This document shows, in pieces, positions 20,611-46,692 of a stretch of DNA of 64,000 bases (within the stretch, counting starts at the first letter, position 1; every line of letters starts with the position of its first letter). Position numbers and translations under genes: made by a program. A model generated the notes under the pieces. The model saw only the letters and a list, made by a program, of their open reading frames with translations, was not told the DNA's origin and did no database searches. The DNA comes from an uncultured bacterium (GTDB lineage Bacteria; Krumholzibacteriota; Krumholzibacteriia; JACNKJ01): positions 2,688,001-2,752,000 of the forward strand of contig CAVOFT010000001.1 in NCBI GenBank assembly GCA_963695095.1. Reading direction: 5' to 3'.

Positions 20611-20671
20611 GATCAGCGGGGAGACCGTGCGTGCGCACGCCCCTCACTCCTTCCACGAGAGTGCCGGAACG

Positions 20672-20849
20672 AGGGTCGGGGCAGGTCTCCTGACTTACGG
20701 GGGGCCGAAGCCCTCGCGACCGCCGCCTTCCCAGTTTCCCAGTGGCGTCGTGGCGGTCTCCCGATCACAGTGGCGGGACCGTGGCGGCTTCACACCGCGC
20801 TTCCCTATTCTACCCTTGGGCGGACGCCCGCGGGTCACCACCGACCCTG
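20672..20849 (-). promoter_or_regulatory. Cobalamin riboswitch
   Basis: AATAGGGAA..GGTG..CCCGCCACTGTGA..GCCACTGGGAAACTGGGAAGGC..AGTCAGGAGACCTGCC, closed by an AGGGTCGG/CCGACCCT stem. Confidence 0.95.
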
Positions 20850-20906
20850 AACGCCGCCGAGCATAGCGCCATTGCGCACGGGCGGCAAGTCGCTTTCTTG
20901 GGGCGC

Positions 20907-40907: not shown

Positions 40908-40918
<11 letters not shown>

Positions 40919-41204
40919 CGCCCGCCTCGCGCGCGAGTTCGCCCAGCAGGCGGATGGATTCCACGCCCGCCAGCGGCAGCTCCAGGCGCAGGGCCTTGGG
41001 GAAGACGCCAAAGGCCGCGGCCTTGGCCAGAAACTCCGCGCGCGTGCCCGGGTCCTCGCCCTCGCGGTGCCAGCCTGCGTCGAGCAGCAGGATGCTCTCC
41101 GCGCGGATGTCGTCGCAGCGGCCGACGTAGGCAGCCTCGGCGGCGATGACCACCACGGTCATGCCGTGCAGGGCGTCGCGGTCGTGATGGAAGGTGCGCT
41201 CCAT
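40908..41204 (-). CDS. Small hypothetical protein (in frame with the RCC1 ORF)
   Basis: GGGAG RBS before ATG 41204 and host-like codon usage. Confidence 0.5.
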
Positions 41205-41309
41205 GGGCTCGCTCCCGGCCGGGGTATGGCCTTCAGGATCGGCCACGAGCGCCGGGCGCGCAAGCGCCAAGGGGGCCCCACCGGTCGGGGAGCCCCTCGC
41301 CTCTCCCGT

Positions 41310-42716
41310 GCTGCCGTCCGCCTTGAGGCCAAGACTGTGCAGAACCCCTGCCGCCACGGCCACGAAGTCGCTGTTGGGCTCGGGCACGTTGCATTGGCCT
41401 TCGTCGTTCAGACCCCAGGCGACGATCGACCCGTCGGCTTTGAGGCCGAGGCAGTGGTCGTTTGCGGAGATGGCCACGAAGCCGGAGTTCGGCGCAGGTA
41501 CCTCACACTTGCCGTTCTCGTTGTTTCCCCAGGCGACGATTGAACCATCCGCTTTCAGCCCAAAGTTGCATTTATTTCCGGCCGCCACCTTGACGAAGTC
41601 GCTGTTTGGCGGAGGCACGTTGTAGACATCATCGTAGTTATTCCCCCAACACGCGATCGAGCCATCCGCCCTCAGCCCCAAGAAATGAGTAGTCGCTATC
41701 GCCCAGCTCACCGTGTCATTGCCTGTCGCAATGGCCACAAAGTCATTGTTCGGCGCCGGCACACCACACTGACCATAGGTGTTGTCGCCCCAGGCCACCA
41801 GGGAGCCGTCGTCTTTCAGCGCGAAGCTGTAACGTATTCCGGCAACCATAGCAGCATAGCCGGTATTCGGCTGGGGGATCTCACACTGACCGGACTCGTT
41901 CCAACCCCAGGCGACCAACGAGCCATCGGCCCTGAGGCCGAGGCTATGAAAGGCGCCGGCGGCAACAGCTACGAAACCGGTGTTTGGTTCCGGCACATCG
42001 CATTGGCCATCCCCATTATCGCCCCATGCGACAATGACGCCATTCGCCTTCAGGCCCAAGCTGTGCACACTGCCCGCCGCTATCGCAGTGAAGTCGGCGT
42101 TCTGGCCGGGTATGTTGCACTGACCTTCGGCGTTCAGACCCCAGGCGACGATGGAACCATCGGCCTTGAGTGCCAGGATATGATGGCCTCCCGCCGCCAT
42201 CGTTAGGAAGTTGCTGTTGGGTTCCGGCACGTCGCAGACGCCGTATGCGTTGTATCCCCAGGCAACGATGGAACCGGTAGCTTTTAGTCCCAGATTGACA
42301 ACATACCCTGCGGACACGGCGACGAAGTCGGCATTGGGCTCCGGTACGTCGTTCATGCCATAGCTGCCATCTCCCCAGGCTAGGATTGATCCATCATCTT
42401 TCAGGCCCAGGAAGTGAGTCCAGTGACCCACCGACACAGCCTGGAAGCCCTCGTTGGGAATAGGTAGCTGCGCTTGCCTATACAGGTTGCGTCCCCAGAC
42501 GATCACGGAGCCGTCAGCCTTGAGCCCGATATTGCTGTCACCCACTGGAGAAGCCGAGATGGCTGCGAGGTTCTCGAGTTCCCACTGGGGCAGCACGATC
42601 GCCTCACCCCAACTGCGGATTCCATACCCTTCCTGGGCCCAGGCCACACCGCCCGTGACCAGCCATGCCAGCACGACGAACGCCAAGAACCCTCTGTGTC
42701 GGATCCTCATCGCCAT
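41310..42716 (-). CDS. Exported RCC1/BLIP-II-like repeat protein, lower GC, apparently truncated and reading through into the next gene
   Basis: Signal peptide and about 11 repeats of GLKADGSIVAWG.N..GQC.VP.PN..FVAVAAG..H. No stop at the end of the repeats. Confidence 0.75.
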
Positions 42717-42832
42717 TCCCTCGCTTTGGTCTTCGGGTTGATCGGACGCTCTGCCCCAGCTGCGGGGCGACCCGGCGAGGAATGGGACACAGAGGCGCCG
42801 CAAGTATCACGGCGTCGGAGGCAGGATCAGTG

Positions 42833-42887: not shown

Positions 42888-43587
42888 TCAGGGCTTCCAG
42901 ACCTGCCAGACCTTGCCGACCAGGTCCGGGCCCACCTTGAGCGTGGGCTTGCCGGGCGTCCAGCCGGCGGGCGTGGCCTCGGCGCCGCCGCTGGCGCGCA
43001 CGAGCTGGAAGGCCTGCACCTGGCGCTCCAGCTCGGCGAAGTTGCGGCCGACCGGCGGGGTCATCACTTCCATGGCCTGGATCACGCCGTCGGGGTCGAT
43101 GAGGAAGCGCCCGCGGATGTCCACGCCGCCGTCCTCGTCGAAGACGCCGTAGATCTGGCCGATGCGGCCGCCGGCGTCGGTGAGCATGGGGAAGGGCACG
43201 CCGCCCTCCACCATCTTCATGAGCTCCTCGCTCTGCCAGATCTTGTGCACGAAGCGGCTGTCCGTGCTCATCGAGAGCACCTGGACGCCGAGCTTGACGA
43301 GGCTCTTGTGCTGGGCCGCGACCGCGGCCAGCTCCGTGGGTCAGACGAAGGTGAAGTCGCCGGGGTAGAAGCAGAGCACCACCCACTGGCCCTTGTAGTC
43401 GCTGAGGCTGATGTTCTTGAAGCCGCCGTCCACGAAGGCCGTCGCCTCGAAGTCCGGGGCTTCCTTGCCGACGCGTGCTAGCACTCTTCGTACCTCCCGT
43501 TGCCGCGGGCGCCGCGCTCTCGTCGGCGCTCTCCACCACCTTGGGGCCGCGGGCACTCGCGACGCAGCCCTGGTGCTTCTCGGCCAT
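42888..43587 (-). CDS. prxU: Selenocysteine-containing peroxiredoxin (in-frame UGA at 43341-43343; +1 shift in the N-terminal extension, alternative GTG start at 43484)
   Basis: [16 protein letters not shown] replaces the AhpC DFTFVCPTE motif. The frame continues to GRNF.E..RQ and EATPAGW. SECIS-like hairpin follows. Confidence 0.9.
43311..43343 (-). promoter_or_regulatory. Bacterial SECIS element
   Basis: UGA, then 11 nt, then a GGCCGC-GGUC-GCGGCC hairpin with G-containing apical loop as in E. coli fdhF. Confidence 0.75.
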
Positions 43588-43646
43588 GGCACCTCCTTGC
43601 GCCCCGCGCGCCGGCAGCCGCCGCGCGCCTCGGACGCCATGGTTGC

Positions 43647-43674
43647 ATTGTACTGAAACATCGCGGAATTGCAA
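43647..43674 (-). promoter_or_regulatory. Putative sigma70 promoter of prxU
   Basis: TTGCAA-N16-TACAAT. Confidence 0.55.
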
Positions 43675-43695
43675 GGAGGGCCGGGCAGGGGGGGC

Positions 43696-43727
43696 AAAGA
43701 AAGGGGCCCCGCCGAACGGCGGGGCCC
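43696..43727 (-). terminator. Intrinsic terminator
   Basis: 10-bp GGGCCCCGCC stem followed by CUUUCUUU. Confidence 0.8.
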
Positions 43728-43968
43728 GGAATCGGTCGGCATCGGTGACGTTGGGTTTCCCCGCCGGGCGGGGGATGATCCCAAGTCAGCGGATGACGTC
43801 GGGATGGCCCGTGGTTACGGGGACGCCACCTCCGCCAAGCCGCGTATACCTGAAGTCACTGGACCACCTCCTTTTCCGGGCGAACCGGAATTCGGTGAGA
43901 CCCACCTCACCCGGCCCCCTGACCGCCCTCGTCTCGGGGACCGCCGCAGCGTCTGCGGATGGATACCT
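43696..43968 (-). ncRNA. Candidate structured small RNA with 14-codon ORF (43859-43815) and extended Shine-Dalgarno
   Basis: Several hairpins, AAAGGAGGUGGUCCAG, own terminator, weak upstream promoter TTGGCT-N17-GATCAT. Confidence 0.5.
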
Positions 43969-44093
43969 GTCCACTATGATCGGGCATTTCCGGGCGGAAG
44001 CCAAGGGGAAAATGCGGGCGGCCGGGGCAGCAGCCCCCCGGGCGGCCCCCCACGCTGGGGACTGCCCGCAGGCAGAGCGCAGCCCTGCGCCCC

Positions 44094-44843
44094 CTACTCG
44101 ATGTTGTACTGGATGGTGACGACGACGCGGGCCAGCTTGTCGATGGTGCTCTTGTCGTAGCGTCCGCCGTACTCGTAATCCCCGTCGCTATCGCCCGCGG
44201 CCAGGATGTAGAAGGCGCCCTGCGAGGCGCTGCGCATCGAGCCCACCTTGGCGTCGCCGTTCTTGGCGAACTCCTCGGCGCGAACGCGCGCGTTCTGCGT
44301 GGCGGCGCCGATCAGGGACATCTTCACGTCTTCCAGGTTCGAGATCATGAACAGCGGCTGGTCGTGGGTGACGGCCAGGTGCTCGGCCTCGAACTCCAGG
44401 ATCGGCCCTGCGCATGCCAGCACCCGGGCCAGGTCCTGCGTGGCGAGCGTCGTGGACTGCCGAGCCTCGAAGCCGGACTGGACGCGGCGATCGCGACCGT
44501 CGCGCCCCTCCCGCATCACCCAGTGCGGTTCCACGAACTCCTGCGACTCCGTGATCGCGTCGGCGGGAAAGCCCTGCGCCAGCAGGAAGGCGCGCACCTT
44601 GGGCTGCGTGGCGCGCAGGGCGGCCAGCGCGGCGGCGAAGGTGGGAGCCGTTTCCGTGACGTTCACGGTGCACTCCGCGCGGTCGGCCTCGACCGGTTTC
44701 TCGGCCAGACCCTTCACCATGATGCTCTGGTTGCTGTCGCGCAGGTGCTTGATCTGCGTGCCGAGGACGTAGGCCGCGACGACGAGACCGATCGCGAGGA
44801 TCGCGGCCACGGCCACCGAGGGGCGCGAAGGGGAAGCGTTCAT
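44094..44843 (-). CDS. SIMPL domain (DUF541) protein
   Basis: N-terminal TM, VKGLAEKPVEAD, ATQNAR.RAE, ASQGAF.I, K.ARVVVT. Confidence 0.85.
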   Translation of the reverse strand: MNASPSRPSVAVAAILAIGLVVAAYVLGTQIKHLRDSNQSIMVKGLAEKPVEADRAECTVNVTETAPTFAAALAALRATQPKVRAFLLAQGFPADAITESQEFVEPHWVMREGRDGRDRRVQSGFEARQSTTLATQDLARVLACAGPILEFEAEHLAVTHDQPLFMISNLEDVKMSLIGAATQNARVRAEEFAKNGDAKVGSMRSASQGAFYILAAGDSDGDYEYGGRYDKSTIDKLARVVVTIQYNIE

Positions 44844-46535: not shown

Positions 46536-46541
46536 ACCGGG

Positions 46542-46614
46542 TGGGCGATACTGGGATCGAACCAGTGACCTCATGCGTGTGAAGCATGCGCTCTCCCAGC
46601 TGAGCTAACCGCCC
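46542..46614 (-). tRNA. tRNA-Val(CAC), CCA not encoded
   Basis: GGGCGGTTAGCTCAGCTGGGAGAGC...CATGC-TTCACAC-GCATG...GGTTCGATCC...ATCGCCCA. Confidence 0.95.
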
Positions 46615-46616
46615 CT

Positions 46617-46692
46617 TGGTGGACCGCAGGAGGATCGAACTCCTGACCTCTGCATTGCGAACGCAGCGCTCTACCAGCTGAGCTAGCGGCCC
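46617..46692 (-). tRNA. tRNA-Ala(CGC)
   Basis: Cloverleaf, anticodon loop TTCGCAA, G3:U70 pair, CCA end. Confidence 0.96.

Follow-up and report, generated by a model that had tools for sequence, protein, structure and literature searches.

A gap of roughly 600 nt in the genome of an uncultured bacterium poses the question of why a short, isolated stretch of DNA should encode an almost complete complement to the tail of 16S ribosomal RNA (rRNA). The gap lies within a 64,000 nt stretch of contig CAVOFT010000001.1 (assembly GCA_963695095.1), referred to here as the window, and is bordered, in minus-strand order, by an upstream SIMPL/DUF541 gene, which ends at 44094, and a downstream peroxiredoxin gene, which begins near 43485. 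Between them is a stand-alone RNA gene of ~270 nt (43969-43696, minus strand), present as a single copy in the 3.64 Mb genome. A first-pass annotation, made from the sequence alone, had proposed that an independent RNA encoded here might capture or store 30S ribosomal subunits, act as a protein sponge or express a micropeptide. The analysis described below indicates that the locus is probably a gene for a highly structured small mRNA, forming a larger counterpart, outside the Alphaproteobacteria, of the rre small mRNAs (rreB, rreR and CC2171).

Small mRNAs complementary to the 16S rRNA tail are the subject of one experimental paper and have been thought to be confined to the Alphaproteobacteria; that paper reports rre analogues only in four alphaproteobacterial orders, and without known function (Hahn et al. 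2016, RNA Biol 14:1353, PMC5711450). For example, rreB of the Bradyrhizobiaceae is described there as a 165 nt RNA with 17 nt complementary to the 16S tail, the last of them being the G of the GTG codon at which a 14-codon open reading frame (ORF) begins; rreR of the Rhodobacterales has 18 codons. The rreB RNA co-sediments with 30S subunits and is weakly translated, and its stability depends on the start codon, replacement of which stabilised the transcript (PMC5711450). Literature searches, covering few subscription journals, returned only this paper and found no description of such an RNA outside the Alphaproteobacteria.

Complementarity to the 16S rRNA tail

Between 43874 and 43859 the minus strand reads AAAGGAGGTGGTCCAG. 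As the 16S rRNA of the same genome ends in ...GCGGCTGGATCACCTCCTTTCT, this tract can pair with it over 16 nt with one G:U pair; the anti-16S tract claimed in the first-pass annotation, the last G of which opens a GTG codon, is confirmed. When the whole genome was scanned, the tract was the longest anti-16S complementarity outside the rRNA gene, at 17 nt counting G:U pairs, the extra nucleotide arising because the scan reaches one base further 5'. A single coding site, which needs three G:U pairs, tied at this length, and the remaining GGAGG sites were all limited to 13 nt or fewer. The tract is more than a chance match. Its predicted duplex with 16S rRNA has an energy of -31.3 kcal/mol with the last 22 nt, or -18.2 kcal/mol with the last 14 nt, compared with about -9 kcal/mol for a canonical Shine-Dalgarno (SD) sequence.

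Homologues and their distribution

Of 41 related genomes examined by DNA search, 19 carry the RNA, each of them once. A pattern demanding both GGAGGTG motifs of the RNA, at a set spacing, was then scanned against one genome per species and matched at least 119 loci, and a profile built from the 19 relatives recognised 101 full-length homologous loci, comprising those 19 and 82 of the pattern loci. Removal of nine duplicates and three truncated copies left a set of 89 sequences, drawn from the matches listed. Of the other 37 listed pattern loci, 36 had matched by chance, within coding DNA or repeats, and every alphaproteobacterial locus was among these; the last lay in a cluster of GGAGGTG-type direct repeats and had a second, overlapping match. 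In all, 38 of the listed pattern matches were dropped on these grounds. Because the collecting pattern fixes parts of the sequences, 40 model-found homologues were also fetched, of which six were already in the earlier set and 34 were new, none of these matching the pattern.

The 19 relatives also served to build a covariance model (R1). Of 151 genomes of the class Krumholzibacteriia searched with it, 76 contain the RNA, with one match in 75 of these 76. Divided by family, the RNA was present in 9/11, 32/43, 4/7, 17/23, 7/10, 6/13, 0/35, 0/7 and 0/1 genomes. In a second class, which holds a record labelled Thermoanaerobaculia, the same model detected the RNA in 25 of the 121 genomes searched, and it did so in all five genomes reached via named loci. 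The labels given to the carriers by submitters include Krumholzibacteriia, Krumholzibacteriota, Latescibacteria, Latescibacterota, Eiseniibacteriota, uncultured 'Fibrobacteraceae' and one Gemmatimonadota-labelled metagenome-assembled genome, as well as Thermoanaerobaculia, Holophagales, Acidobacteriota, Multivoradales and Acidobacteria bacterium Mor1. These labels are inconsistent, one 'Latescibacterota' chromosome falling in the window's class, and hence only two clearly separate classes are claimed.

A conserved reading frame

Every one of the 89 sequences of the pattern-collected set has an extended SD and, behind it, an ORF that starts with GTG or TTG and has 13-15 codons; similarly, an extended SD, a start codon and an ORF of 14-15 codons are found in all 34 of the model-found homologues outside the pattern, one of which was read by hand. 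Scored for every member against the 16S tail of the window genome, complementarity ranges from 11 to 19 nt, counting G:U pairs, and runs into the start codon in 72 of the 89. The position following GGAGGUG is A or G, each able to pair with U, in every sequence, and the next five bases are AUCCA in 51 and GUCCA in 15. At loci L169-L181 (in the class of G151), 13 species genomes share the same 14-residue product and the SD variant GGTCTAGTG, only one differing, at two residues; this looks like a frozen copy in a species-rich genus.

The ORF starts with GTG in 80 and TTG in nine of the 89 homologues, in each case 4-7 nt downstream of GGAGGTG, and ATG is not used. Among the 34 model-found sequences there are 32 GTG, one TTG and one ATG start, the last, at L145 (G026), being the sole instance seen and having a longer SD-start spacer too. 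Fourteen codons precede the stop in 54 of the 89, 15 in 34 and 13 in one. Indels are frequent in the spacer between SD and start, and the sole length change within the ORF is of 3 nt. All three stop codons are employed (TAG 33, TGA 30, TAA 26), and a stop triplet lies within 16 nt after GTCCC in the frame of the ORF in 89/89 sequences, compared with 1/89 and 3/89 for the other frames. The 14-codon ORF from GTG to TAA that had been read from the window alone is confirmed, with its start, length and in-frame stop conserved in both sets. To judge from these sequences, the ORF is real.

The encoded product is much less constrained. Residues 2-8 vary freely, with entropy sums over these codons of 6.96, 9.12 and 8.15 for codon positions 1, 2 and 3, so that there is no third-position excess. 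Codons 9-13 are nearly invariant, including at synonymous sites, and constitute the 5' strand of a covarying helix. Free codons followed by invariant, helix-forming ones suggest that what is conserved is a readable frame of fixed length, and that the peptide is probably not the point. Of the micropeptide proposed in the first-pass annotation, the conserved small ORF and its in-frame stop stand, and the peptide itself is conserved in its C-terminal half only.

These observations bear on the alternative that the RNA is an ordinary, efficiently translated mRNA, with the 14-15-residue micropeptide as its effector and the structure merely stabilising the message. Such a role would be consistent with the strict retention of start, length and stop, with the recurrence of a C-terminal G-[LS]-x-E-V-A motif in the homologues not selected by the pattern (EV in 29 of the 34) and, by analogy, with the conservation of the RreB and RreR peptides within alphaproteobacterial clades, as given in the rre paper (PMC5711450). 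It accords poorly with the freedom of residues 2-8, where the second codon position is the most variable, with invariance at the synonymous sites of codons that form covarying helices, with the presence, outside the ORF, of ~95 nt of covarying structure on the 5' side and a conserved block on the 3' side, and with the near absence of ATG starts (0/89 and 1/34). Furthermore, the same combination of SD and GTG lowers translation in rreB, according to that source (PMC5711450). An effector micropeptide is consequently considered an unlikely, though not negligible, explanation.

A covarying secondary structure

In alignments of the homologues made with L-INS-i, RNAalifold predicted 54 base pairs, 25 of them with compensatory changes, among the 19 relatives, and 52 pairs, 32 with compensatory changes, among the 89 sequences. 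A curated structure of 56 pairs (Table 1) consists of the hairpins P1, P2 (with an inner stem) and P3, a candidate 4 bp pseudoknot, a two-part long-range helix, a 3' hairpin and the terminator. It is 93.6% paired across the alignment, against 85.6% in shuffles and 38-49% when the 3' partners are slid by 1-3 columns. Double changes are found in 35 pairs, amounting to 456 cells, and none of 500 shuffles reaches the curated structure by any measure. The terminator stem (helix 10) is 95.0% paired, with compensatory changes in all ten pairs.

The long-range helix connects codons 8-13 of the ORF with a conserved block beyond it, while a separate hairpin follows straight after GUCCC in 89/89 sequences; in 86/89 its apical loop contains two or three of the stop-codon nucleotides. 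The candidate pseudoknot (helix 4), which would join the P2 loop to the CGCCC block, is 97.5% paired; it is treated as a candidate because it is backed by one compensatory event, in two sequences of one genus, and RNAalifold instead pairs the CGCCC block with the SD. Two loci (L085:1378-1690 and L027:1378-1684) have an extra insertion of ~30 nt, possibly a hairpin, between this block and the SD, indicating that the spacing of the two is tolerant. The 3' hairpin shows little covariation, and the alignment is gappy there.

Several hairpins had been identified by eye in the first-pass annotation. GGUGAG/CUCACC covaries and CCCGU/ACGGG is kept as a hairpin in all 89 sequences, and UUCCGG/CCGGAA is not conserved. 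A fourth, UUGGG..CCCCGC/GCGGGG..CCCAA, corresponds to the 3' hairpin and is retained to the extent that its inner stem is 89.3% and its outer GGG/CCC 83.2% paired. The wider expectation of conservation in relatives is accordingly upheld for the extended SD and for most hairpins, and fails for UUCCGG/CCGGAA and for an exact triple spacing, considered below.

Other possible interactions were set aside. A kissing contact between the P3 loop (UGGGU) and ACCCA is 92.6% paired and nearly invariant, making it uninformative. An internal mimic of the anti-SD sequence, GGGAUCACCCC, pairs with the SD in a subset of folds only and is not conserved. A crude all-against-all scan for helices was dominated by G+C-rich false positives and was kept as a lead only.

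Table 1. Features of the small mRNA gene, listed in the direction of transcription
Feature	Coordinates	Strand	Description
Promoter-like site	43976..44004	-	TTGGCT 44004-43999, 17 nt spacer, GATCAT 43981-43976; start predicted near 43969
P1 hairpin, CCGCAG/CUGCGG	43944..43958	-	Helix 1: 5 pairs, 4 compensatory, 87.6% paired
P2 stem, CGGUCCCC/GGGGGCCG, with inner stem	43912..43943	-	Conserved loop GGGCGG 43928-43923; helix 2: 7 pairs, 6 compensatory, 93.7% paired; helix 3: 4 pairs, 3 compensatory
P3 hairpin, GGUGAG/CUCACC	43894..43911	-	Loop GUGGGU; helix 5: 6 pairs, 4 compensatory, 98.5% paired
Conserved CGCCC block	43878..43882	-	Candidate pseudoknot with P2 loop (GGGC 43928-43925 : GCCC 43881-43878), or local SD mask
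Extended SD tract, AAAGGAGGUGGUCCAG	43859..43874	-	Complementary to 16S 3' end; last G is first base of start codon
Small ORF, MTSGIRGLAEVASP	43815..43859	-	GTG 43859-43857, 14 codons, TAA 43817-43815
Long-range helices, 5' strands	43823..43838	-	UUGGC 43838-43834 and GGUGGCGU 43830-43823, inside ORF codons 8-13; helix 6: 5 pairs, 3 compensatory, 89.7% paired; helix 7: 8 pairs, 2 compensatory, 99.9% paired
Hairpin CCCGU-AACC-ACGGG	43808..43821	-	Stop codon at tip
3' hairpin	43752..43783	-	Outer UGGG/CCCA and inner CCCCGC/GCGGGG; helices 8 and 9: 83.2% and 89.3% paired
Long-range helices, 3' strands	43736..43751	-	ACGUCACC 43751-43744 and GCCGA 43740-43736, in conserved block AACCCAACGYCACCGA (family form AACCCAACGYCACCGA..RCYGA)
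Intrinsic terminator	43696..43727	-	10 bp all-G:C stem 43727-43704, U-rich tail (T-run in DNA)

Spacing of the GAGGUGG copies

The sequence GAGGTGG occurs on the minus strand at 43826, 43864 and 43902, that is, three times exactly 38 nt apart, as had been pointed out in the first-pass annotation. This holds for the window genome, and the triple phasing is particular to it. The motif is itself common, with 32 copies in the whole window against 11.5 expected. Owing to G/U variation in the P3 loop, the copy located there is present in just 49 of the 89 homologues; it is 35-39 nt away in 48 of these 49, and 38 nt away in three. The distance from the SD copy to the copy in the ORF is 38 nt in 81 of the 89, within a collecting pattern that admitted only 36-40 nt. 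This internal GGAGGUG precedes the last sense codon by 8-11 nt in most members.

The phasing had led to the idea that the RNA is a non-translated decoy, storing several 30S subunits on SD motifs set one ribosome footprint apart. The regular triplet in the window genome and the frequent 38 nt distance between SD and ORF copies are as this would predict. By contrast, the upstream copy is missing from 40 of the 89 homologues and rarely in phase where present; the ORF copy is base-paired within the GGUGGCGU part of the covarying long-range helix, and its GGAGG is replaced in five of the 34 unselected homologues; a conserved frame with an in-frame stop argues for translation; and overproduction of rreB did not slow growth, according to the rre paper (PMC5711450). 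Storage on three phased SDs, one copy being unconserved and another folded within the ORF, is therefore rejected as highly improbable. Capture of a 30S subunit, the other half of the original suggestion, is plausible by analogy with rreB.

Transcription and gene neighbourhood

The terminator that had been noted as closing the unit is present, as a G:C stem followed by a T-run, and its stem is among the covarying elements. Upstream, a promoter for the RNA gene may lie at 44004-43976, where a box read by eye matches eight of 12 consensus positions, slightly under the threshold of the promoter scan; a T-run, TTGnnn and a TAnnnT-like box were likewise observed by eye at a fixed distance upstream of P1 in many homologues. 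The promoter scan also identified a promoter-like site at 43674-43647 for the downstream peroxiredoxin gene, in agreement with the earlier proposal that this gene, termed prxU, has a promoter of its own beyond the terminator. The peroxiredoxin gene (AhpC-TSA family, 42888-43485, minus strand) reads ...FTFV-TGA-PTE..., with an in-frame TGA (43343-43341) at the position expected for the peroxidatic cysteine, which suggests a selenocysteine-containing, PrxU-type gene. In the relative L003, a close homologue of this gene is likewise found downstream of the RNA.

Fourteen metatranscriptome runs, from at least 12 studies, contain 42-50% of the sampled words of the RNA. In four of these runs, belonging to four studies, the sole matching record is one contig of 209-229 nt, covering 43726-43954 at ~96-98% identity and extending into neither flank. 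The samples come from sediment, sludge and groundwater. Contigs restricted to the RNA hint, though weakly, that the transcript is discrete and comparatively abundant. All four differ from the window at the same three positions (43855, 43919 and 43920), one of the changes, ACT to AGT in codon 2, restoring the family consensus; on this sequence evidence, their source is a close relative widespread in such samples.

Neither Pfam scans of 149 flanking ORFs nor clustering of the complete set revealed a neighbour common to the homologues beyond local synteny. The downstream genes vary, including those for peroxiredoxin, an ArfB-like protein, pyruvate:ferredoxin oxidoreductase, an AMP-binding enzyme and DNA ligase, and some are on the opposite strand. 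Together with the terminator, the covarying fold and the RNA-only contigs, these unconserved neighbours support the proposed independent, structured RNA of ~270 nt. Within the window's own family, five of nine RNA-carrying relatives (L002, L003, L004, L006 and L009) have an RF-1-domain gene (ArfB-like, with a GGQ motif) in the same orientation as the RNA and no more than 1.5 kb away from it, once directly after the terminator and once upstream, with inserted genes at some loci; the linkage has been kept despite these rearrangements. The window's ArfB-like gene, encoding a small protein, is at 41011-40535 (minus strand), ~2.7 kb downstream of the RNA. No ArfB-like gene was found near the RNA in any other family examined. 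The association is suggestive since the authors of the rreB study proposed trapped ribosomes and their rescue (PMC5711450), and it concerns one lineage only. A 631-residue ORF (40908-42803, minus strand), consisting mostly of RCC1-type repeats, overlaps the stop-to-stop frame of the window's ArfB-like gene by ~100 nt; the part of it within locus L001 matches Pfam RCC1_2.

The linkage raises the alternative that the RNA is a cis-acting leader, or ribosome-dependent attenuator, of arfB or prxU, with the small ORF as its leader peptide. In addition to the proximity of arfB in this family, the ORF overlaps a helix that could switch. However, neither arfB nor any other neighbour is shared outside the family, the downstream genes are unrelated or in opposite orientation, and arfB is upstream of the RNA in one relative. 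No conserved anti-terminator was found, and the terminator, covarying in every pair, is where the RNA-only contigs stop, inside the RNA, in the 5' half of the stem. With the peroxiredoxin gene having its own promoter-like site, an attenuator appears very unlikely.

Comparison with known RNA families

An Rfam scan of the 64 kb window at gathering thresholds detected a cobalamin riboswitch (20663-20858, minus strand, 85.2 bits) and two adjacent tRNA genes, tRNA-Val(CAC) and tRNA-Ala(CGC) (46540-46692, minus strand, also found by ARAGORN), and assigned no family to the RNA. A permissive scan of 43400-44200 returned 14 sub-threshold matches, the best being to CC2171 (RF01867) at 23.2 bits (E 0.0099-0.011), against a gathering cut-off of 75. 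The Rfam search that the first-pass annotation had recommended thus places the RNA in no family at threshold. When the CC2171 model was run over the whole genome, the RNA locus was the best match and the antisense of the 16S 3' end the second, at 18.5 bits, from which it follows that the anti-16S tract carries the similarity. CC2171, the expression of which has been confirmed in Methylorubrum according to a preprint (10.1101/2022.01.24.477521), is evidently, from its sequence, the Caulobacter representative of the rre small mRNAs.

The impression, gained by eye, that the RNA is not a tRNA, transfer-messenger RNA (tmRNA), signal recognition particle (SRP) RNA or RNase P RNA also proved sound: ARAGORN reported no tRNA or tmRNA at the locus, the respective models are silent there, and the genuine tmRNA, SRP and RNase P RNA genes are elsewhere in the genome (185.8, 70.9 and 319.7 bits). 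The model for 6S RNA (RF00013) has no match anywhere in this 93.5%-complete genome, but as it matches only five of 14 control genomes its silence means little; the 6S RNA of this genome, if it has one, escapes the Rfam model. That the RNA is a divergent housekeeping RNA, such as the missing 6S, and its ORF incidental, would be in line with this silence and with its appearance in many metatranscriptomes. Nevertheless, the consensus fold is multi-branched rather than rod-like around a central bubble, selection on the ORF and SD is evident and two families of the class gave no match, and with RF00013 failing in most controls as well, this identification is scarcely credible.

Proposed mode of action

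Conservation, fold, tract and reading frame are apparent in the alignments themselves and, at this level, the family represents a genuine small mRNA, structured and conserved, that extends the rre design to new phyla. Tight docking of 30S subunits, throttled translation and ribosome-dependent refolding would be the consequences. The unpaired, A-rich 5' edge of the tract may seed pairing with the 16S tail, which is proposed to result in very tight 30S docking. An over-long SD combined with a non-AUG start would make both initiation and clearance slow, such that the RNA would be mostly ribosome-bound and weakly translated. The 5' domain, formed by P1-P3 and the candidate pseudoknot with CGCCC, may set the degree to which the SD is masked. 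A translating ribosome would have to open the helix between codons 8-13 and the 3' block, whereupon the 3' domain could refold. Under such a mechanism, the output is more likely to be ribosome occupancy, or ribosome-dependent refolding or decay, than a peptide.

Several points weigh against this account. Binding to 30S subunits, translation and the ends of the window RNA are deduced, and the metatranscriptome contigs give neither strand, ends nor level. As 70 of the 89 sequences were gathered by pattern, the conservation of their SD and ORF motifs is partly built in, a bias that the 19 relatives from the DNA search and the 34 model-found sequences offset only in part. The RNA is also not universal in its class, R1 having found none in two families of the Krumholzibacteriia (0/35 and 0/7 genomes). 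Thermodynamic folding leaves the SD core mostly paired, chiefly with the 10 nt upstream; its unpaired probability averages 0.33 and exceeds 0.5 in only five of the 89 sequences. Access may therefore need the seeding and melting proposed for rreB, the tract of which is described as having a single-stranded 5' seed with the remainder in a hairpin (PMC5711450). The three A residues upstream of the core have a mean unpaired probability of 0.78. Moreover, the constraints on RNA and peptide overlap at the recurrent C-terminal motif, leaving room for a peptide function.

Several single-sequence minimum free energy structures contain two other pairings, one between GGAGG of the ORF and a CCUCC further downstream, the other between GUGGCG in the mid-region and the 3' block. 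This alternative 3' fold is 78.7% paired, compared with 78.0% in controls, and 53 of 500 shuffles match its covariation score; a single position (257:353) covaries, in seven sequences. Its native duplex energies are -13.3 kcal/mol, against -12.7 and -11.2 kcal/mol with swapped and shuffled partners. On these models, the alternative fold is not established.

A more specific and tentative possibility is that the RNA acts as a device for sensing or parking ribosomes, by a mechanism of an undescribed kind combining gated 30S capture, one slow round of translation and folds toggled by occupancy. The folded 5' domain would control access to the near-perfect anti-16S tract, by which a 30S subunit would be captured, and the weak GTG or TTG start and the 14-codon track would then meter a single slow round. 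This round would have to melt the helix between ORF and 3' block and would end at the stop codon on the hairpin tip, where the internal GGAGGUG could re-tether the terminating ribosome. Toggling of the fold might thereby serve to gauge or buffer the supply of free 30S subunits or the capacity for rescue, which would fit the linkage to ArfB in one family. If so, the alphaproteobacterial rre RNAs would be minimal versions of the same principle.

As regards the small mRNA design itself, it occurs here with a richer covarying architecture and is carried, in one copy, by roughly half of the genomes sampled in one class and by roughly a fifth of those in another. Taken with the short metatranscriptome contigs, this argues that 'over-perfect' docking on a tiny ORF has been selected repeatedly and is no mere curiosity. 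The large alignment separates the constraints on the RNA from those on the peptide, making the question of the product, whether a peptide, a bound ribosome or a refolded RNA, directly testable, and the covariance model can now be used for annotating the RNA in genomes of Krumholzibacteriia and Thermoanaerobaculia.

Relationship to rre RNAs and other small mRNAs

The closest resemblance is to rreB and rreR, stand-alone small transcripts with a terminator; the window RNA, with its predicted terminator, is probably such a transcript as well, and 16-17 nt of 16S rRNA complement ending in the G of GTG are common to both. The features typical of the rre RNAs, namely a complement of at least 16 nt, the last base of which is the G of GTG, and an ORF of ~14-18 codons conserved within a clade, are all found in the window RNA. 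With rreB it additionally shares an ORF of 14 codons, a tract predicted to lie partly in a hairpin with an unpaired 5' seed, and a genomic context that is unconserved between clades. The two differ in their hosts, the present family being found in the Krumholzibacteriia and the class labelled Thermoanaerobaculia rather than the Alphaproteobacteria, and in their architecture, as the window RNA is ~100 nt longer and has a covarying three-hairpin 5' domain, a long-range helix locking the ORF and a stop codon within a hairpin loop. Whereas 30S binding has been demonstrated for rreB, the window RNA is known from its sequence and from predicted duplex energies. In a comparison by description, no sequence homology to rreB or rreR was detected beyond the tract. 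Similarly, the consensus of CC2171 begins with GAAAGGAGGUGAUCCAGUG and ends in a terminator, but its internal helices do not align with those of the window RNA, and the match remains far below the Rfam cut-off.

Ribosome-dependent attenuator leaders, such as trpL, also place an ORF of ~14 codons over one strand of an alternative helix, followed by an intrinsic terminator. The window RNA departs from these in having no conserved downstream operon, regulatory run of codons or conserved anti-terminator, and in the failure of its alternative fold to exceed controls. Dual-function small RNAs, for instance SgrS/SgrT and RNAIII/hld, are structured RNAs that contain a small ORF, have ordinary ribosome-binding sites and act on known base-pairing targets. 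The window RNA resembles them in being a structured RNA with a small ORF, and is distinguished from them by its hallmark, a near-complete complement of the 16S rRNA tail.

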